Source of the DNA: Gemmatimonadota bacterium
GTDB lineage: Bacteria > JBHIER01 > G020348925
Length of the DNA stretch: 64,000 nt
NCBI GenBank assembly: GCA_020348925.1
Contig: CP070758.1
Span: 496,001-560,000, forward strand
Direction: 5' to 3'
Position numbers and translations under genes: made by a program. A model generated the notes under the pieces. That model ran no database searches. It was not told the DNA's origin and saw nothing but the letters and a program-made list of their open reading frames with translations. Every line of letters starts with the position of its first letter. The stretch's first letter is position 1. Of the stretch, positions 8,620 to 46,641 are shown one piece after another.

Positions 8620-8700
8620 CGAACGATAAAGGTAAACCTCGAGTGATCGGGGGACACAAAGCAAACGGATCTCAAAGAGATGGCCGGGCTGCCGAAGTCC
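8620..8700 (+). promoter_or_regulatory. Cyclic di-GMP-I (GEMM) riboswitch
   Basis: AAGGTAAACCTCGA-GTGA-TCGGGGGACACAAAGC...GGCCGGGCTGCCGAA: GNRA loop, covarying U-A pair in P2, G20/A47/C92 equivalents intact; TGnTATAAC upstream and a U-tract downstream before the gene at 8764. Confidence 0.88.
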
Positions 8701-30577: not shown

Positions 30578-30660
30578 CGGTTTCGGTAACCCGGCTTGCT
30601 AACAAATGAGCCCCGTGGCTTCCCGTCCCACCTTCACAAGTGGTTTGGCTTTTCGGTCCG
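30578..30660 (-). promoter_or_regulatory. Cyclic di-GMP-I (GEMM) riboswitch
   Basis: Minus strand CGAAAAGCCAAACCACTT-GTGA-AGGTGGGACGGGAAGCCACGG...AGCCGGGTTACCG; TATAAC just upstream; terminator downstream. Confidence 0.85.
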
Positions 30661-35699: not shown

Positions 35700-36515
35700 T
35701 TAGGGATATGCATTCGGGTGGAAAAGAATTTTTCCGTCCTTCTTGAAATCACCGATGATCTTTTGACCCTCAGGCGAGGTCACCCATCCTATGAACGCCA
35801 TGGCGTGAAAGTAGTTGACGTGGGGGTGTCGGTGTGGGTTGACGGCGATGATGCCGTAAGGATTGAAAAGTCTTTCGTCTCCCTCACACAGAATGACGAG
35901 GTCGAGCTTCTTTTCAAAAGCGATGAAGGTTCCTCGATCGACAAGGCAATAGGTGTTCTTTTCGTTGGCCATCTGGAGGGTTGTTCCCTTCCCCTGTCCT
36001 GTCTCGACGTACCATTTTCCGTGAGGGATGATTTCCGCTACTTCCCATAAATTTTTCTCTTTTGCGTGGGTTCCGGACTCGTCACCCCGGGAGTAGAAAG
36101 GCTGCTGCGACGTAGCGATTCTTTTGAGAGCATCGGCACCACGTGTGCCCTTTATTCCGGCAGGGTCGTTTTCGGGACCGACCATAACAAAATCGTTGTA
36201 CATGACGTCCCGTCGGTTCACACCATATCCGATTTCGATAAATCTGTCCTCTGCCTCACGGGCATGGACGAGGACGAGATCGACGTCACCGTTTTCTCCC
36301 AACTTCAAAGCTTTACCGGTACCGACGGCTATCACATCGACGGTGACCTGAAATCGGTCTTCGAAGGGCGGTACTAAAACCTGGAGAAGGCCCGAATTGT
36401 CGGTGGATGTCGTCGTGGCCATTTTGATCCGTTCAGTCGATGCTGCTGAGGAAGTTAGAAATATCACGACAGCCAGAATGGCAAAACAGTTTTTAATGAA
36501 TCGACGTCGTCTCAT
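35700..36515 (-). CDS. tupA: Tungstate ABC transporter substrate-binding protein (TupA-like)
   Basis: ATTTSTDNSGLL, AVGTGKAL, VMYNDF, SRGDESGTH, DRGT, NPYGIIAVNP. Confidence 0.9.
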   Translation of the reverse strand: MRRRRFIKNCFAILAVVIFLTSSAASTERIKMATTTSTDNSGLLQVLVPPFEDRFQVTVDVIAVGTGKALKLGENGDVDLVLVHAREAEDRFIEIGYGVNRRDVMYNDFVMVGPENDPAGIKGTRGADALKRIATSQQPFYSRGDESGTHAKEKNLWEVAEIIPHGKWYVETGQGKGTTLQMANEKNTYCLVDRGTFIAFEKKLDLVILCEGDERLFNPYGIIAVNPHRHPHVNYFHAMAFIGWVTSPEGQKIIGDFKKDGKILFHPNAYP

Positions 36516-36577
36516 GGAGTGGTTCCTTTGAAATAAAAAATTTTTCTTATCGATACCAGGAATTCTGGGAAGCCTTT

Positions 36578-39136
36578 TCACTCAGGACTGGAAAGAATCA
36601 CCATGATTGTAAGCACCAAATCCACCACGTCCACCGAGTCGTCTCCGTTGAAATCTGCTGCCCAGCGATCAGAAGGGTGCGGGTCGAGGAGGCCTATGAT
36701 TATATTCACTCCGAGGACGACATCCATAACGTTGACAGTCCCATCATTGTTGATATCCCCCTTCAGATCTTCGGCAACAGAGATTTGGACGTCGTCGATG
36801 TACCAGCCTTCAGCACTGGCGGTCGTATCGGAGCCGGCTCTGAAACGGAACCGAACCGGGCCGTAATAGTCTGTGAGATCAAACTCCGCTTCCGACCAGC
36901 CCTGAGATCCTGAGTAGATGGGCGTATTGCCAGGAAACGGGTTTCCGGAGTATCCGTCCGTCAGAAAATATGGATACCCGCCCTTGGGGGTGATGAGCGT
37001 CCAGCCGTCCCCGTCATTGATTTCGACAAGAGCACCATCATAGGGCACCTCCATATCGATCCAGTGCCAGAAGGTCAGGGTCGTGTTAAAGCTAAGATCG
37101 ATGATCGGCGATACGAGCCCGGCATCAAGCGTATTGGCATAATGCTCACTTTCAGGACCGCCACATTTCCAGCTCGTCGTGCCTCCGAGGGTGTGATTTC
37201 TGTATGTGCTTTGATGCCACTGGTCATGATAGCCTGGAGTGATTGCCCCGGGCAACCACGCACCAGATCCCGATTCCATGTCATCGGCGAAGACTCGATC
37301 CAAACCTATGGTCATGGTGAATGATACTGTGAGAGGGTCACAGCCCTGACAGGCGACAGTCAAGAGGAAGAAAACCTCCCGATTTATGGGACAATCGGAT
37401 TCTACGCTCAAACGATAGGGAGTTTGTGAACTCTTTGTCTCAACAGTATCAATTGCACCGAAGGACGCTGTTGCGTTGATGATGGTAACGTAGAGATCAG
37501 GTGAACTCAAGGTTCCCGTGATGTTTTCGCTTCCGGCTGAGCCGACATTCTGGAGGTCGATAGTAACATCAACGGTTTCACCGGGATCGGGAAATGCATC
37601 CCCATCACCTCCGGTGTCGTCAACATGGAGATCGGCGACAGCAAATGCGGGGACTCCGGTGCACGCAATGTCAAAGGTCATCACCGAGCCGGAGTTGCCA
37701 ATGTTGGTGATTTGTATTCCACTTGATTCGTTGTAGCCGGCGGTGTTCGGTGTCGTCGTTGAGGTGAACTCCGTCTGTCCGTCTTCGGCTGAAAAACATG
37801 CCCCGATTTTGAACTCCCACGGATACCACCACTCGCTGAATTCGCCCACAGCATCCCACGGCTTGGCCGGATCGTAACCGGCATCTTCGACTACAACCCT
37901 GTAATGAGGGCGGTTTCCGCTGTTGGAAGGAATGTCTTCATCGACATGGGTGATCAACAGTCCGGCATCGAGTGGATTCGGTCCTGGAGTGAACCATTCA
38001 AACCAGGCCGAAAAATCCGAATCGTAATGATCGAAAAGAGCCGATGAGGCCGAGTTGCGATTTTCGATCAGAAAGTACTCCGTGAGTGAACTGTTGATGG
38101 GGATTTTATAGAGTGCGTTGACGAGTGTCGTTTCGATTTCGTTGATTTGAACGTTGTTGTGCGAGGAGTCAAGCACCGTCGGGGTGATCCAGCCGAGAAA
38201 GTTTTTCATATAACCACACAGATGAGTGGGAGTGATGTCCGCACCGTAGGATGATACGGAATATCCGTAGTATCCCATGAGACACCAGTCCATTAAAGGA
38301 TGATCGTTTTCGTCATTGGGGGTATTGTATGTGTCCGTATTCATTTTCCCATCGTAGTCGTACAGATCTGGGCAGCCGAGTAAATGGGAATATTCGTGGG
38401 CAAAGACTCGAATGCCCTGCATTTCTCCCGCAGTGCCTTCTCCTCTCAGCTCGGGGTTCATCGAGTAGAGGGTAATGGTGACCCCGTCGTATACTCTCCG
38501 TTCTCGCAGGGCCCACTGGTGAGACCAGATATCGTTCAGACTGCCTGTTGATTCCGCTCCAGGCCCCTGATGGACGATGATGAGTCCGTCCACGTAGCCG
38601 TCAGAATCGTTATCGTACTGGGAGAAATCCACACCGCCAGCTTCGGCGGCATCCACCGCTTCCTCGACAAGCGCCTGGGCATTGTAGGGGTACGTCCCCA
38701 TACCATAGTTCCCGCCGCCGGTATAATGGGCATAATTGTTGGCGGCGGTGTACCATCCCCCCACTTCACCGGTCAGACCGAAAGTGCCATAGGAGACCTC
38801 TGCGAAATAGTCATTCAGGCTTCCCGTCGGATAACTCCCGGTGGTGAACAGCATATTGTGAAAACTTTCACGGGAATGAGTGCCGGAGACATCCGGTGTT
38901 TGAATAAGGATGACCAGAGCTTTATCCGGACTGCCGGTCCTTTCGAGATTGAGAGCCGCCGGTTCATCAACACCTTCGGGGAAGACGGGGTAGGGGTCGC
39001 CGGTCGTCACCGAGCGGCCGCTCTTCGCATCGTACAAGCCGGGCCGAGGCGGGACATGCCCCCAGGAAAGTGTCGGTAAGACCAGTATAATGATGAAGAG
39101 GATTACCTTCAACGAGGTATTTTTTCCACTGTTCAT
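36578..39136 (-). CDS. Secreted M6 (immune inhibitor A-like) metalloprotease with dockerin
   Basis: SLNDYFAEVSYG, DFSQYDNDSDG, IWSH, FAHEYSHLLGCPDLYD zinc motif, EYFLIENR; C-terminal dockerin. Confidence 0.9.
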   Translation of the reverse strand: MNSGKNTSLKVILFIIILVLPTLSWGHVPPRPGLYDAKSGRSVTTGDPYPVFPEGVDEPAALNLERTGSPDKALVILIQTPDVSGTHSRESFHNMLFTTGSYPTGSLNDYFAEVSYGTFGLTGEVGGWYTAANNYAHYTGGGNYGMGTYPYNAQALVEEAVDAAEAGGVDFSQYDNDSDGYVDGLIIVHQGPGAESTGSLNDIWSHQWALRERRVYDGVTITLYSMNPELRGEGTAGEMQGIRVFAHEYSHLLGCPDLYDYDGKMNTDTYNTPNDENDHPLMDWCLMGYYGYSVSSYGADITPTHLCGYMKNFLGWITPTVLDSSHNNVQINEIETTLVNALYKIPINSSLTEYFLIENRNSASSALFDHYDSDFSAWFEWFTPGPNPLDAGLLITHVDEDIPSNSGNRPHYRVVVEDAGYDPAKPWDAVGEFSEWWYPWEFKIGACFSAEDGQTEFTSTTTPNTAGYNESSGIQITNIGNSGSVMTFDIACTGVPAFAVADLHVDDTGGDGDAFPDPGETVDVTIDLQNVGSAGSENITGTLSSPDLYVTIINATASFGAIDTVETKSSQTPYRLSVESDCPINREVFFLLTVACQGCDPLTVSFTMTIGLDRVFADDMESGSGAWLPGAITPGYHDQWHQSTYRNHTLGGTTSWKCGGPESEHYANTLDAGLVSPIIDLSFNTTLTFWHWIDMEVPYDGALVEINDGDGWTLITPKGGYPYFLTDGYSGNPFPGNTPIYSGSQGWSEAEFDLTDYYGPVRFRFRAGSDTTASAEGWYIDDVQISVAEDLKGDINNDGTVNVMDVVLGVNIIIGLLDPHPSDRWAADFNGDDSVDVVDLVLTIMVILSSPE

Positions 39137-39343
39137 GAACGAGCACCTCCACCTGAATTATGGTTTCGAATGATTCTCATGGACTGTTTTTCGATTCCCA
39201 CATACTCAGTCTCCTCTGGTTTGGGAAAAGAGACTCTCAAGTCTAATACGAAATGCGGATCTTGTCAACTCATTTTTCAGGTGTTTGCTCAAAAGGTGTT
39301 GAAAGAGTAAAACCTTTGAACGAGAACGCATCATTCTGTCACA

Positions 39344-40258
39344 TTAGAAAGTGGTCTGAAACTGGGCTTTTAGGGCGTCGCTATGATCTCCATCGTCCCT
39401 TAAGAGGTAATTGATTTGAACTTTCGAATTGTTGTGAATAAACACGTTCAATCCCAGTATAATGATAGCGGAAGTATCGTCTGAAACATCTCTGTCGGGA
39501 TCGTACGTGTCGTATCGCACCAATCCTTGGAAGTCGGTGAAACATGAATAGGCCGCTTGAACGAACCAGCCGTCCCTCTGATCAGAGCCATCTTCAGCAT
39601 ATATATACTCGCCACCCAAGGAGAGCAAACCAAGATGTGTCGCCATATAAATTCCTGTCCGGTTCTTCTTCTGGCGTTCTTCACCGGACTTCCCTCTATA
39701 GTGAGAGAACCCCATTTCCGCTTCATTGAAGGGTTTCGCCACTATCATTCCAACGACATCTTTCCAGTCATTTTCATCGGAAGTGTTCTTCCCAGACCCG
39801 TTAAAGACCCCGAGGCTGTACGAAAGTATTTTGAAGCTTCCGCTCACTTGCAACCCAATATCATACTTCGTTGATAAATTCGAGACCACTTGTGCTCGGT
39901 CAATCATGCTCAATTTTGCACTCGACGTAAGATATTCGTTGCTGAAAGGGGTTTTGAATTGGCCAAGACGAAGAGTAATCCATGGCTTGTAGTTGATGTC
40001 TATATGGGCTTTCCATAGAATGGGAGTAGAAACCGCATCGAAGAGAATTAAAAAGCTCATGTTCTTGAGAAGATCTCCAGAACATTTTAATCTCGCCCGT
40101 CTGACCTGAAATTCATCAATGGAATTCTCGTCAGAGGTGTATCGTACCTGGACATAGCCGCCTGTTTTCATCTCTGTTCCGGTCGTTTGTGCGAAAAGGG
40201 ATAAACTGTTCATTACATGCAGTACTGCGATGAATGTGAACGGAGCGGTTCTTTTCAT
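39344..40258 (-). CDS. Outer-membrane porin (OprO/OprP-like)
   Basis: Signal peptide, GYVQVRY, RRARL, GQFKTPFS, GVFNGSG, C-terminal Phe. Confidence 0.82.
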   Translation of the reverse strand: MKRTAPFTFIAVLHVMNSLSLFAQTTGTEMKTGGYVQVRYTSDENSIDEFQVRRARLKCSGDLLKNMSFLILFDAVSTPILWKAHIDINYKPWITLRLGQFKTPFSNEYLTSSAKLSMIDRAQVVSNLSTKYDIGLQVSGSFKILSYSLGVFNGSGKNTSDENDWKDVVGMIVAKPFNEAEMGFSHYRGKSGEERQKKNRTGIYMATHLGLLSLGGEYIYAEDGSDQRDGWFVQAAYSCFTDFQGLVRYDTYDPDRDVSDDTSAIIILGLNVFIHNNSKVQINYLLRDDGDHSDALKAQFQTTF

Positions 40259-40289
40259 CTTCTTTTTTCTCCTTATTTGTTTACATCTG

Positions 40290-41183
40290 TCACCAGGCGA
40301 TCACTCTGCCAGAATCCCTCGTGTCGTAGCCGCCCATGCGGTCAACTCTGTATCGGAAATGCTCGGAGCGAATAACCTCCAATATCTCCTGAATCGGTTC
40401 TGTATAGAAGTGAGCTTTGGTAATGACAAAATCGAAGCGTTCCTTCGTAATCGGAATGAAATTCAGACCGAAGGCTGTGGCAGCGGCCTTCAAACCCAGC
40501 CCCACATCGGCCTCCCCGTTGCGCACGGCCAGAGCGACCTCCGTGTGGGTCGACACACACCTTTCGTAACCGCGTATCTGCCATCCCTCGATGTTCAATC
40601 GCTGTAAGTGATAATCGAGGAGCTGACGAGTCCCGGCGCCTTCCTGACGATTGATGAAACGCACATCCGGCCGGGTGAGATCCTCAAAAGCCTTTACTTT
40701 GAGAGGATTTCCCGGTTGCACCATGAACCCCTGCTCCCGATCCAGAAAGTGGACGACGACGGTCTCCGCTTTCGGCAGGTATTTTGGCACAAAGGGGAGG
40801 TTGTATTCCTTCGTTTCCGGGTCCAGGAGGTGAATGCCGGCCATGTGGCTGGAGCCCCGCTGAAGATGCACAAGACCTTTGACGCTGCCCACATGGGCTG
40901 AGAGGACGACCAATTGCGGGAAGTGTTCGATCACTTCCGATTCAAGGATATCGATGGCCAGATCGTGGCTGCCCATGATGGTGATATTCTCTGTTTTGTC
41001 CAACGGTTTCTTCCCCCGGATGTCCTCGTCTATCCACTGATCGATGGATTTCTTCGGGAAAAGCCATTTTCCCGTGATCCGGGTGCACGGGATGTCCCCG
41101 CGCTTGATGAGAGCATAGATCTTTTTCTCATTGAGGCTCAAATACTTGGCGAGTTCTTGGACCGTCATCAATGCCTGAGTCAT
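40290..41183 (-). CDS. Excisionase-like HTH plus molybdate/tungstate PBP-domain transcriptional regulator
   Basis: LMTVQELAKYL...IYALIKRGDIP..RITGKWLF (HTH_17); GSHDL, VGSVKGL, FINRQEGAGTR, HTEVA...GEADVGLG (PBP-like). Confidence 0.9.
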   Translation of the reverse strand: MTQALMTVQELAKYLSLNEKKIYALIKRGDIPCTRITGKWLFPKKSIDQWIDEDIRGKKPLDKTENITIMGSHDLAIDILESEVIEHFPQLVVLSAHVGSVKGLVHLQRGSSHMAGIHLLDPETKEYNLPFVPKYLPKAETVVVHFLDREQGFMVQPGNPLKVKAFEDLTRPDVRFINRQEGAGTRQLLDYHLQRLNIEGWQIRGYERCVSTHTEVALAVRNGEADVGLGLKAAATAFGLNFIPITKERFDFVITKAHFYTEPIQEILEVIRSEHFRYRVDRMGGYDTRDSGRVIAW

Positions 41184-41280
41184 GTTCAATACAAGCCTTT
41201 CAGTGATACGAACAGGATTTTGGTGTTTTTGTTAGGGAGGAATTTAAACTCTGAGATAGGTGATGACAAGAAAAAAACGA

Positions 41281-41470: not shown

Positions 41471-42164
41471 ATGAAAAAATCCATGAGAATACCGCTGTTT
41501 ATCATCCGTGGCCTGTCCGTTCTCATCATCCTGGGTGTCCTTTTAACCAAACTGGCTGCAATCATTGTCGGTCCTGATACTTTTGAAGAGAGACTTGCTC
41601 GAGATATGAAGGGAGCGGTCAAAGATTCTCTCCGTTTCGCTAAAAAATTGAAGAAAGTATTCAAAAGGATGGAATGGGTCGTGTCAAGGAGATACGTATC
41701 TGTATGCGGGATCTTTTTAATATTCGGACAGGTCCAGGGAAACATACCTCAGGGATAAGATGGGCAAGCTTTCGAGAGGAGATGAGATTTTTATCCTCGA
41801 AGAAATTGACGGCCGGGTGAAGTTTCGTCTCATCTCAGAAGATACCGAGTGGTCCGGCTGGGTTCAAAAAAATGGGACTGTTCCGAAACAACAATGGGAC
41901 CTTTCAAAATATGATATGACTGTAAAAGAATTGATGGACTCCGGCCTCATCGTTGAAATTCAACTCAAGACTGTCCTCGTGAATGGTTCCGTGTGGAAAT
42001 CATTGGAGTACGAAGAACGAGGGAGTATCGCACAAATGCTTGCCATGTATTTTATCCTTCAGCAAAAATCTGAAATTATATTCAGTTTCATAATAGACAT
42101 CTAATCGGGTCATACCCTTGCCGAATCTAGAGAAGACAAAGGCTTTAGCCTGGTTTATTCATGA
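41471..42164 (+). pseudogene. Disrupted membrane-anchored SH3-domain gene
   Basis: SH3b motif split over three frames (RRYV / FNIRTGPG / DKMGKLSRGDEIFILEE...GWV) and an in-frame TAA at 42102 before a plausible tail. Confidence 0.6.
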
Positions 42165-42747: not shown

Positions 42748-44295
42748 TCAATCAGTTTCATACTTAAAAGATTTATGCTTCAGATATGAGATCAAAAGCT
42801 CAATGACTTTTTTGGCGGTTGATTTGGAATAGGGGAATGTAATGGAGTAGGAGGCGTCTGCTGAATCTATGCTGAGTGTGCGCAGAGCCTTGCTTTTTTT
42901 CGTGGTGGGATTACTGCTGGAGGATCGTTTCATTTCGTGATACGGCAAAAATATCCGCTGTTTCTTGAAATCGAGGATGATATGTTCGTTTGTGAAAACG
43001 ACCGTGCCTCTGCTGGACATCTGTTGTCCCTTGGAAGGTGCCATCTCTATGTGAGGGCTCCCTTTGAGAAAACGTCCATGGGGTATGGCCAGCAAAATCC
43101 TGTTGTTGGGAGGGAGGCTGTAGCTCGTCTTTGCCCTAGTTCGGTTTTGCGCGTAATTCTTTCGGATGTCGTTGAAGCTCCGGATCTTGACCGAGAGTTC
43201 CTGCTCCAGTCGTGTCTCCTCCTTGAACATGTCGCAGCCGCACTTTTTGCAGCTGGGCACCAGTGCTCTGTTCGGTGTTTCGCAGAGTGGGCATTTGACG
43301 ACCACGGATTTGTTGCATTCAGGACAGACCTTCCTCCGTTCAGCGACGGCAGCCTGACAGTGGGGGCAGGGAACCATAGGTACATAGTCCGATTCTCGAG
43401 GCATTTTTGTCTCCTGAGCCTCTTTTTTCCCTTTTTCGAGAAAGTGGAAGTAGTGAAAGCCTTCTCCGCCACCATCCATGTCCTTGCAGGCGAGAGAGAC
43501 CTGAGCGAAATCGATACGTTTGACTCCATGACTGTGACCAATGACGAGACAGAGGTCGGCTAAAGAACAGATAACGCGGGGGACACCCATGGAAAATTTG
43601 TATATGGTTTCGTAGGCGAAATCAGTAAAGATTTCAGTTCCGGTGTATCCTGCCTTCGAGAGACGAAACCGGATAAGATCTTTCGTCTCGCTGAGATTGA
43701 GGTTTTTAAGAAAGAAGCGGACGGGCAATCGCTGCCAGAACTCAGGCATGCTCCGGACAATACCCTCGAGTGGTTTCTGGCCAGAGAAGATAAAGGTTAG
43801 AAGAAAAGCTTCGGCGACGCAGAAATTGAGGAGGATCCGGAGTTCCTGCAGAAGGTCGAGGCGGTGGCTGAGCATCTGCCCTTCATCGACTATGACAACG
43901 GTCTTGAAACCTGCATCGTGATAGGATTGCAGCTGTTCTCTCAATTGGTTTAAAGCATCAACTTTATCCCTGATTTTTTGGAGAGAACCCAATTGACGGG
44001 CGAGCTCGCTGATCAGCTGGGTTGGGGTGAGGGTTGGGTGGTCGATGAAGACGAGCTTTATCTTCTCCCCGTACTCGGTCTCCATGTCCTGACAGAGACG
44101 TGAGAGGACGCTCGTTTTGCCGTCACCGGCGTGATCAGAGACTAAAAGTGCCCCGCCTTTATTCGATTGAATGGCGTACTTCAATCGCAGGAGACACTCG
44201 CGGTGTTGGCTGCTCAAATAGAGCATTTCCGGATCCGGAGTGAGAGAGAAGGGGATCTTATCAAGACCCCAATATGTGAGATATTGGTCAATCAT
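42748..44295 (-). CDS. ExeA/GspA-like AAA ATPase with double zinc ribbon
   Basis: PFSLTPDP, AGDGKT Walker A, VIVDEGQ Walker B, GVPRVI; CPHC, CPEC, CPLC, CKKC. Confidence 0.88.
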   Translation of the reverse strand: MIDQYLTYWGLDKIPFSLTPDPEMLYLSSQHRECLLRLKYAIQSNKGGALLVSDHAGDGKTSVLSRLCQDMETEYGEKIKLVFIDHPTLTPTQLISELARQLGSLQKIRDKVDALNQLREQLQSYHDAGFKTVVIVDEGQMLSHRLDLLQELRILLNFCVAEAFLLTFIFSGQKPLEGIVRSMPEFWQRLPVRFFLKNLNLSETKDLIRFRLSKAGYTGTEIFTDFAYETIYKFSMGVPRVICSLADLCLVIGHSHGVKRIDFAQVSLACKDMDGGGEGFHYFHFLEKGKKEAQETKMPRESDYVPMVPCPHCQAAVAERRKVCPECNKSVVVKCPLCETPNRALVPSCKKCGCDMFKEETRLEQELSVKIRSFNDIRKNYAQNRTRAKTSYSLPPNNRILLAIPHGRFLKGSPHIEMAPSKGQQMSSRGTVVFTNEHIILDFKKQRIFLPYHEMKRSSSSNPTTKKSKALRTLSIDSADASYSITFPYSKSTAKKVIELLISYLKHKSFKYETD

Positions 44296-44713
44296 CAGAA
44301 ACCTCGTTGAATATGAGTACTACAAATCTATACATAATACTAAAGTCACTGTACCATTGTCAACCCCAAAATCGTAATCGTGTGAAGAAAAAGATGAATG
44401 GAGAGAGAGGAGGATGTGGTGAAGTCGATCCCTGAGATAATGAAATAGGCATTGCACCGAAGCCGAATGTGAGAAAATCAATGGAGAGAGGATCTCATTC
44501 GATTGAATTGCGTCAGGAGGGGATGCACACTCTGAACCTGAATTATGAAAAAATTGGGTTGCGAACAGAACGGGTTTTCGTCCTCATGGGAGAGGGACTA
44601 AAATAAGGTGGGAATTTGTGGAAGGTAAGCGGTAGGGGGGTATTATGTGGTTGAAAAGACCCAACCCTCTCTACGCTAATTTTCAATAGCGTAAATCAAG
44701 CTTTTCCACAAAT

Positions 44714-45001
44714 AATAGTACTACTTACCCGCTCTGTTCACAACGTCCGAGTTTTGTACTCAAGGGGCACAACCTGAGTAGTATCCCTCGCCCTTGAAAA
44801 ACTTGGTGCTCTGAAACACCAAACCTGTCAACGTCCGTGAAGAATCGACTCCTTTCTTCAGACAAGTTAACGGGAGAACAGTTTCGTAGCCCCCTGGCGC
44901 GAAGCTGATGCAATGATTGGTGTCGCGCCCTACGAGAAACCCTCACTGTTGACCTTGCACGTGTGGGTCAACAAAAGACTGGAGGACTTCTATCCACTAC
45001 T
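44714..45001 (-). ncRNA. Candidate ~290-nt multi-hairpin non-coding RNA, family unknown
   Basis: Five consecutive hairpins enclosed by a long-range helix; G-U pairs favour the minus strand; promoter directly upstream. Confidence 0.55.
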
Positions 45002-45005
45002 CTCG

Positions 45006-45034
45006 AATGTAGTGCGTCGTTAAGAAATTGTCAA
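45006..45034 (-). promoter_or_regulatory. Sigma70-type promoter
   Basis: TTGACA (45034-45029), 17-nt spacer, TACATT (45011-45006). Confidence 0.65.
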
Positions 45035-45262
45035 GTGTTTTTTGGGGAATATTCATTATATTTCAATAAAATCGCTTTTTTTTAAAGAAATTAATATATC
45101 TTACTGAAAAATATTGAAGTTATTCTATGTTGAGAACCATTTCCACGAACCGCCATATGGGCTGAATCAAGGATTTGTCGCGTACGCCTGTGAGATGGGC
45201 AGCAACCGCGAGTTCGAATGACTCAGCGGTCCTGTTGTATCGACTGTCACGTGGGACGGTTC

Positions 45263-46641
45263 TTATTTCACAAGGACCATGCGTTTCGTAGCTCTGAATT
45301 CCCCCTGAAGGTCTCGTGATGTTCCGCCTGCCGAGAGCGTATAGAGGTACACGCCACTGGAGACTTTTCTTCCTTCCTCATCCTTCCCGTCCCAGGTTGC
45401 CCTATGGCGCCCCGGCGCTTTCCGCTCATTGACCAGGGTTCGCACTTCCTGCCCGACAATGTTGTAGATTTTCAGAGAGACCCACGGTGTGAGTTCAGTG
45501 GTCGGAACAGAGTAGATGATCGTAGTCGTGGGATTGAAGGGATTGGGATAGTTTTGTTCCAGAACCCACGTCTCGGGTTGGAGGTCTCCTTTGAGGTTGA
45601 TGGGGTAGATATCAACCGGAATTTCACGACATCCTTCTCCGGCCAAGAGCGCTTCTGAAATTTCGATCATCGGTCTTTGAGTCGTGGATTTCGAGTTCCG
45701 CATAGAGAAGGATGCGGTCAGGATTGAACCGGATCCGGCAGGAATAGAAGTGCCATCGGGATTGTAAATGAGGATGACCCACCGGCCGTCTGCCCATTCA
45801 TGATCAAGCTTCATGTGAGAGGCGCGGCCCCGGAGTTGAGGCGCTTGTGGGTGGAGGGCGGTTGGATCGTAGCCGAGGATGAGCTGTATTCCAGTCATAT
45901 CATGTTCAGAGCGGATGGCGAGGGGGAGTTCGAGGCGTCCGTGTGTGAACTCCGCCTCCTCCCCAGGGCTCCAGATGCTGGCCGGAGATATGGCTATCTT
46001 TGCCAAGCTTGAAGTGGGCGGGCAGGTGCCAAGGCCGAGAATGACGTTGATGATGCCCACGACATCGAGAATATCGACGGCATCGTCCTCGTTGCAGTCG
46101 GCGGCCCAGAATTGAAAGGTGGTGAATTCTATTCGTTCGAGGATGTAGTTGATCATCCAGACGGCATCCAGGACATCCACTTCGCCGTCCATGTTGACGT
46201 CCCCTTTGATCCCTGTGCCGAGGAACAGCGTACCGTCCTGCACCCTCAGTGGGATTGCGATGCCGACCGTATCACTCAGTACGACTCTGTCAAAATGAAT
46301 GCGTGTGCTATCGCCCACCGTTACGCTTGGATTCACCTCAAACGTGATCTCGGCCACAGGTCCTGTTCCGGATGCGATCGCTTCGAGCTCTGAAGTGGCG
46401 AAGACGATGATGAGGCGTCCCGGATCCGGGATGTTCCAATCGAAGAGACCATCAATGCGCGGGGTCGGTTGGACATCCAGGACAGTTGCAAAGGTATCAC
46501 TGTACGTCAAGTGCGACTGAAAGGCGGCGATGGGGTCGTCCCTTTCGGTCTGGTTGTCGATATTTAGAGTCATCGTCACCGTATCGCCAGGCAGTGACCA
46601 AGCGTCGGGGATGGCAACAATGACCTGAGCTTCTCTCACGA
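45263..46641 (-). CDS. Cohesin-dockerin-cohesin-FlgD/C-terminal sorting domain protein, 5' truncated at gap
   Basis: IAAFQSHLTY...GTGPVAEITFEV and MTGIQLILGYDP cohesin-like domains; GDVNMDGEVDVLD...WAADCNEDDAVDILD; QNYPNPFNP...WDGKDEEGRKVSSGVY. Confidence 0.85.

Follow-up and report, generated by a model that had tools for sequence, protein, structure and literature searches.

A predicted ~450-nt structured RNA with a very stable 3' rod in an uncultured sediment bacterium, tentatively a polymerase decoy

The DNA analysed, here called the window, is a stretch of 64,000 nt from the 5.04-Mb genome (G000, 96% complete) of an uncultured sediment bacterium. The phylum is represented in the collection searched by this genome and one other (G001), whose RpoB is 88% identical to that of G000; among 300 sampled genomes, the next in line are at 65–67%. 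G001 holds two rpoB copies of identical score (contigs C19 and C87), consistent with its 7% contamination. The locus lies in an intergenic region, within a single gap-free scaffold piece, between two minus-strand genes, one for a cohesin-dockerin-FlgD protein and one for an AAA_22/double-zinc-ribbon ATPase (Table 1). Relatives of the ATPase include several Latescibacterota. Downstream of the ATPase gene and on the opposite strand are two small ORFs of 95 and 114 aa (window 41471–41758 and 41760–42104, plus strand) with no Pfam match. Window 35700–41189 (minus strand) encodes a periplasmic binding protein (PF12849), a porin and a helix-turn-helix/PBP regulator, a cluster suggestive of tungstate or molybdate uptake, with an 852-aa secreted protease-like gene in its middle. 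The window also contains two c-di-GMP-I-GGC riboswitch aptamers, both above the gathering score (8622–8697, plus strand; 30581–30658, minus strand).

Table 1. Features of the locus, of its neighbours and of the zapA-linked RNA (window positions unless a contig or locus is named)
Feature	Position	Strand	Details
Upstream neighbour gene	45263..46639	-	Cohesin, dockerin, FlgD-Ig protein (Pfam); 5' end enters N gap; outside the RNA unit
Sigma70-type promoter-like site	45006..45034	-	TTGACA 45034-45029, 17 nt, TACATT 45011-45006; 10/12 consensus matches
Whole predicted RNA, ~450 nt	44548..45000	-	Ends in U6 run 44553-44548
5' multi-hairpin domain, 255 nt	44746..45000	-	RNA of the first-pass annotation; predicted hairpins; z -0.3
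5'-domain stems	44974-44946; 44929-44896 inside 44940-44881 (AGGGGG bulge); 44871-44827; 44826-44799; 44798-44759	-	Predicted helices
Possible 5'-end pairing	45002-44995 with 44783-44776	-	Predicted
3' rod domain, 188 nt	44558..44745	-	Overlooked by the first-pass annotation; z -7.8
Closing helix, 18 bp	44744-44727 paired with 44575-44558	-	Pair probability 0.99; two G-U pairs
Central bubble	5' strand 44726-44714; 3' strand 44613-44599 and small hairpin 44598-44580	-	Centroid structure
Inner stem	44713-44704/44623-44614	-	Centroid structure
Hairpin A	44695-44670	-	Centroid structure
Hairpin B	44668-44634	-	17-nt loop 44658-44642; centroid structure
Nearly invariant pyrimidine-rich core (3' strand of the rod)	44576..44678	-	Comparison with X8 and X11
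Promoter-like site of the ATPase gene	44334..44363	-	11/12 consensus matches; ~185 nt beyond the RNA
Downstream neighbour gene	42748..44295	-	AAA_22 ATPase with double zinc ribbon, 515 aa (PF13401, PF12773); outside the RNA unit
zapA-linked RNA	L122:1280-1410 (G000:C1 ~3886350-3886480)	-	
zapA-linked RNA	L123:1850-1960; L124:1825-1900; L125:1785-1865; L126:1795-1875		

A first-pass annotation of the sequence had placed an RNA of ~290 nt on the minus strand, directly behind a TTGACA-17-TACATT sequence. This promoter-like site is present where claimed, with AT-rich DNA upstream of it (~45035–45140), and the usual spacing would put the transcription start near 45000; the region has 3 sites of this kind where shuffled sequence gives 1.7 ± 1.3, a number not above chance. 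The ATPase gene does, as stated, have a TTGACA promoter-like site of its own. The lack of a credible ORF was likewise borne out, and single-base gaps in the X11 relative described below also argue against a reading frame. The proposed length and 3' end have to be revised: the RNA is predicted to be ~450 nt long, and an end at 44714 cuts the strongest structure, the 18-bp closing helix of the rod. The RNA is single copy in G000. A 6-bp inverted repeat (CACTAC/GTAGTG, window 44996–45014) sits astride the −10 box and the predicted start and could be an operator. Between the RNA and the ATPase promoter, window 44380–44530 (minus strand) is C/T-rich too and carries a CCTCTCTCCATT-like motif twice, with no folding signal.

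Folding of the whole 459-nt region gave a z-score of −4.41 on the minus strand (0/100 shuffles as good) and −4.15 on the plus strand, and because the two are nearly alike, folding energy alone leaves the strand unfixed. The signal is concentrated in the 188-nt 3' rod: a z-score of −7 was reached by only 2 of 250 sampled intergenic windows, and the closing helix is one of 3 helices of at least 18 bp among 23 long-range intergenic helices. The core contains an imperfect 29-nt direct repeat, 17/30 alike. The 5' half is different in character. The stems of all five hairpins named in the earlier annotation are present, and 45000–44746 holds five non-overlapping stems of at least 7 bp, compared with 1.5 ± 0.9 in shuffles (1 of 1000 reaches five), on thresholds chosen after the sequence was seen. 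By energy, however, the 306-nt stretch then proposed folds no better than shuffles (z −0.68), and the 5' half folds better on the plus strand (z −3.3 versus −0.3). The statement that G-U pairs form only in the minus-strand orientation was thus overstated, as one plus-strand hairpin also extends via G-U pairs. The two enclosing helices proposed for this domain are probably wrong: TCCAGTCTTTTGT/ACAAAACTCGGA can form only with bulges and overlaps the first hairpin in some of its bases, and in AGTAGTG/TACTATT the 3' partner sits in the 5' bulge of the rod and is altered in the X11 relative.

Fourteen of the 15 listed sequencing runs carry part of 44600–45100, six of them RNA libraries. Four runs were compared in detail, the RNA runs X7, X8 and X11 and one DNA run; X10, X12 and X13 (RNA) and X9 and X14 (DNA) contain small shares and do not enter the evidence. 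Contigs of the three RNA libraries, each from a different study, suggest that the unit is transcribed; they show neither strand, ends nor level, and could derive from DNA in the libraries. X7 provides a 166-nt contig identical to 44721–44886. X8 covers 44564–44678 with one substitution and one gap, after which the sequence is unlike, and X11 covers 44576–44794 with 22 substitutions and five single-base gaps, spanning the junction of both domains. The X8 and X11 contigs end 6 and ~13 nt before the predicted 3' end, which we do not count in favour of that end, as no DNA run continues past it. In the RNA runs 44101–44550 and 45051–45250 are uncovered; we did not count these gaps, since the DNA run has the same ones and the runs were chosen by means of this stretch.

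Change in X11 is distributed very unevenly, with one listed change in the 103 nt of 44576–44678 versus 22 in the adjoining 116 nt (p = 7 × 10−6; four substitutions are not listed by place). The core therefore keeps 102 of 103 listed positions while neighbouring positions differ at ~1 in 5. In X8 and X11 together, the bubble strands and the loop of hairpin A vary and the inner stem and hairpin B are constant. The two wobble changes for which X11 covers both partners preserve pairing on the minus strand only (44692/44673, A-U to G-U; 44793/44764, G-C to G-U), C-G replaces a U.U where hairpin A meets its loop, and three changes in the 5' strand of the closing helix keep pairing provided the uncovered partner is unchanged. 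Two helix-end pairs are broken (44703/44627 and 44694/44671). Overall, changes fall at 6 of 92 paired versus 12 of 78 unpaired places (p = 0.08). The X11 changes give modest support to the predicted minus-strand structure, short of covariation.

All-family Rfam scans gave no gathering-threshold match at the locus and only noise at E-values up to 10, so the earlier failure to place the RNA in a known family stands; ROOL and GOLLD are absent among these matches, and 6S, 6S-Flavo and Ms1 do not match the locus even at E 10. With the DNA as query, no homologue was found in 60 other genomes (two 21–22-nt matches, only upstream of the promoter), in 400 genomes with two candidates scored per genome (four 20–28-nt matches), in 10 genomes from the phylum nearest in RpoB, or in G001. 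The blank in G001 shows nothing, as the assembly is only 87% complete and a contig start truncates its ATPase gene; its best match to the upstream protein is followed by a different gene, without the RNA. A covariance model of the 3' rod (R1), whose single-sequence basis limits the meaning of blanks, matched 0/121, 0/5, 0/10, 0/5 and 0/40 genomes and, in 4 other genomes, gave one weak match that is a plain 47-nt hairpin. Exact patterns found 0 and 7 loci in metagenomes and 0, 4, 17, 9, 16 and 7 loci in viral contigs, none extending past the seed, in collections that may lack records very near this genome, and plasmid and phage collections gave no significant match. An RNA relative lies beside 0 of 28 ATPase-related gene loci. 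The motif was not found in the openly accessible papers searched by motif string and topic, nor in the accessible supplements of PMC12286853.

Known RNAs to which the locus might be likened were also compared individually. OLE (RF01071) has no match in G000, and a suspected likeness to OLE proved wrong, since an HMM built from 30 real OLE RNAs, the best among 112 OLE-bearing genomes, gives no match at the locus; oapA is not downstream, its place being taken by the AAA_22 ATPase gene. The accessible text of PMC11332333 describes OLE as almost confined to Bacillota. The raiA motif (RF03072) has two weak matches elsewhere in the genome and none at the locus. HEARO/omega RNA scores 12.5 bits against a cut-off of 83 (E 6.8), and the neighbours are not nucleases. 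ARAGORN called no tRNA or tmRNA in the window, and the tmRNA is elsewhere in the genome. A hammerhead-like junction at 44613–44576 misfits in its core bases, as judged by eye against the hammerhead consensus.

The promoter-like sites on both sides, the very stable 3' domain, the relatives in RNA libraries and the 1-nt indels together make an independent structured RNA the best reading of the locus. That part of the first-pass annotation stands, as does the absence from Rfam; its length and, probably, its closing helices do not, and the part that folds best and is most conserved lies mostly outside its coordinates. We consider it likely that the locus encodes a functional structured RNA, which would probably be a new lineage-restricted family.

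What such an RNA does is a more tentative matter, and among the mechanisms considered a polymerase decoy is slightly preferred. The RNA of ~450 nt would be transcribed from the sigma70-type promoter on the minus strand, its 188-nt 3' rod, modelled as helix, bubble and helix, would mimic an open promoter, and the rod would bind RNA polymerase as a decoy or store, by analogy with 6S, Ms1 and CoRP. The 255-nt 5' multi-hairpin part would be an attached extension, perhaps cut off as in CoRP. What the data show is the sequence, its predicted fold, its single copy and its conservation in two relatives; promoter use, ends, strand and abundance, like processing and polymerase binding, are elements that we infer, and the statement as a whole, a stand-alone decoy with a 5' extension, is put forward as a possibility only.

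In favour of a polymerase decoy, the length of the rod and three features of its layout match canonical 6S, which is ~180 nt long (accessible text of PMC11077062) and has a closing stem, a 5' bulge and a hairpin opposite the bulge (accessible text of PMC8414754). The rod, like 6S (RF00013; 6S-Flavo, RF01685) and Ms1, has a predicted closing stem followed by a 13-nt 5' bulge, with the small hairpin of the centroid structure opposite. The variation of the bubble strands in X8 and X11 around a constant inner stem also fits, as do the two wobble changes that pair on the minus strand only and the finding, in RNA-library contigs of three studies, of parts of an intergenic stretch of this rare organism or a relative. 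A precedent is provided by the CoRP RNA of Corynebacterium, described in the accessible text of PMC11077062 as a 516-nt RNA that is cut into 318 and 198 nt and binds RNA polymerase, is genus-restricted, was overlooked by motif searches and lies between tRNA genes. CoRP and the present RNA are both ~500 nt, intergenic, lineage-restricted and missed by family searches, and in each a longer 5' portion accompanies one of ~190 nt. The likeness is one of description. For CoRP, binding to the polymerase and cleavage into two parts have been demonstrated, whereas here both are proposed, and the genes flanking the present RNA are protein genes.

We do not, however, file the rod as a 6S RNA, because no model matches it, its arm is short and branched, it lacks the GG template and another RNA occupies the slot behind zapA. 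The apical arm runs for ~14 bp and then reaches a junction with two hairpins, unlike the long, unbranched apical stem of canonical 6S, which has small internal loops and one terminal loop. The closing stem is perfect where that of 6S is bulged, and there is a 255-nt 5' extension. According to the accessible text of PMC8414754, 6S product RNAs carry a conserved GG at positions 4/5 or 5/6; a CC template for it is absent from 44745–44714 (minus strand) of the rod, and no distinctive structure emerged when the rod was refolded with its 5' strand masked to imitate a bound product RNA. Rfam 6S was not found in G000 by a search that succeeded in 7 of 14 control genomes, and in a 96% complete genome this counts for a decoy; it says little, since the same family was missed in 5/5 related genomes too. 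The 6S gene is often found in the slot behind zapA, in the order zapA-6S-rny, and the gene of the present RNA is not in that slot. What does lie there, in G000, G001 and three Latescibacterota-like genomes (5/5), is a conserved hairpin RNA of ~60–110 nt with an invariant 8-base core and a T run, which has no Rfam match and is probably a much shortened 6S of these lineages. The gene following it is presumably rarA-like in G000 and G001 and RNase Y-like in the other three genomes; the accessible text of PMC8414754 places 6S beside rarA in lactic acid bacteria. With a conserved short RNA behind zapA, the 6S role may already be taken. Further points against a decoy are that reading mostly by shape leaves a nearly invariant 100-nt strand unexplained, that changes avoid paired positions weakly and break the two helix-end pairs, and that the RNA evidence consists of contigs lacking strand, end and level, which may be DNA.

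A second pairing partner accounts better for the nearly invariant 3' strand, whose 5' partner drifts, and this makes a compact, tertiary-folded 'ornate' RNA like OLE, ROOL, GOLLD or raiA, unrelated to them in sequence, the main rival. By analogy with these, 5' purine tracts would dock on 3' pyrimidine tracts, within or between molecules, and so build an oligomer or a protein scaffold. Like these classes, the present RNA is large and multi-hairpin, with a promoter of its own (predicted here), invariant loops and possible long-range pairings. The 17-nt loop of hairpin B is invariant, and conserved loops make kissing contacts in OLE, ROOL and GOLLD (accessible parts of PMC12286853). Crossing helices could form between 44789–44783 and 44598–44592, both unchanged in X11, and further between 44895–44890 and 44639–44634, 44671–44665 and 44596–44590, and 45002–44995 and 44783–44776. 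Set against this, the nested model gives the crossing helices a probability close to zero, low-complexity purine and pyrimidine tracts easily pair by chance, and the known classes are widespread, whereas no further genome of those searched yielded this RNA. We regard an ornate fold of this kind as doubtful but as a close rival to the decoy. A new class of large RNA, with two domains joined by purine-pyrimidine pseudoknots and the 100-nt strand held by a second partner, for which another copy of the RNA, a protein and a nucleic-acid target are candidates, is again a tentative suggestion.

The one-sided conservation would also be accounted for by a fixed target, as in a trans-acting base-pairing regulator. 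RNAIII of Staphylococcus is such a regulator, and here the ribosome-binding sites of target mRNAs would be bound by single-stranded C-rich segments, namely CCUCC close to the 5' end and the UCCC motifs of the 3' bubble and hairpin, the invariant core being C/U-rich and partly unpaired. Yet the genome holds 6 sites with 15–16 nt of perfect complementarity against an estimated ~4 expected, and 0/6 lie over a predicted ribosome-binding site (on crude gene calls and perfect matches only), and we judge such a regulator unlikely. Hfq, CsrA and reverse transcriptase did not turn up in regex searches, but these also missed SigA and SmpB, which makes the blanks uninformative. A remnant of a mobile element (a miniature inverted-repeat element, an insertion-sequence end or an intron piece), with likeness to the relatives due to recent transfer, seems more unlikely still: the inverted ends are long, the upstream gene lacks synteny in G001, there is the weak HEARO score, and the RNA is missing from all other genomes searched, but the sequence is single copy, its inverted ends contain G-U pairs, the 9 neighbour proteins scanned include no transposase or reverse transcriptase, plasmid and phage collections have no match, and transfer alone does not give the very uneven change along X11. 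A cis-acting leader or switch of the ATPase gene is improbable. In it 44717–44701 would pair with either copy of the internal repeat (registers A and B) and so control termination at the U run; both registers are able to form, the strand is shared with the ATPase gene and a U6 run follows the closing helix. Register B, however, is less favourable by 10.6 kcal/mol and leaves the closing helix intact, so that no antiterminator results, a double change in X11 (A-U to G.A) breaks one of its pairs, the 11/12 promoter site of the ATPase gene lies ~185 nt further on, and a leader of this kind is missing from all 28 related ATPase loci. About as improbable is a chance structure in a purine/pyrimidine-skewed intergenic stretch, which would fit the 5' half, unremarkable by energy, the promoter count and RNA-library contigs that may be DNA, but not the z-score of the rod or a non-coding core that is near-invariant in a relative differing at ~1 in 5 positions nearby. 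Least probable, and largely refuted, is a degenerate paralogue of RNase P RNA (RF00010), suggested by GAAGTCC near the 5' end and by 11/12 bases at 44758–44747 resembling the 3' conserved region, two short motifs in the right order. No RNase P model matches the locus, a whole-domain alignment with the genome's own, normal RNase P RNA, encoded elsewhere, scores at the level of shuffles (z −0.45 to −1.0), and the locus cannot form the core helices P4 and P5 in the RNase P manner.

Few large structured bacterial RNAs are known, and several have led to new biology. The present one, ~450 nt long and matching no catalogued family, comes from one genome of an uncultured organism and two partial relatives. 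Should the rod prove to bind RNA polymerase, it would add one more independent answer to the task performed by 6S, Ms1 and CoRP, in a lineage whose usual 6S seems to have shrunk to 60–110 nt; failing that, the invariant strand points towards an RNA complex of a new kind.

A further intergenic stretch that folds strongly (z −7.6), unrelated in sequence to the RNA, lies near 4821564–4821750 of G000:C1. A replication origin at the locus was considered and rejected, as it has a single good DnaA-like box; the densest DnaA-box-like 9-mers of the genome cluster beside gyrB, at ~392000–394500 of G000:C1, which is the likely origin.
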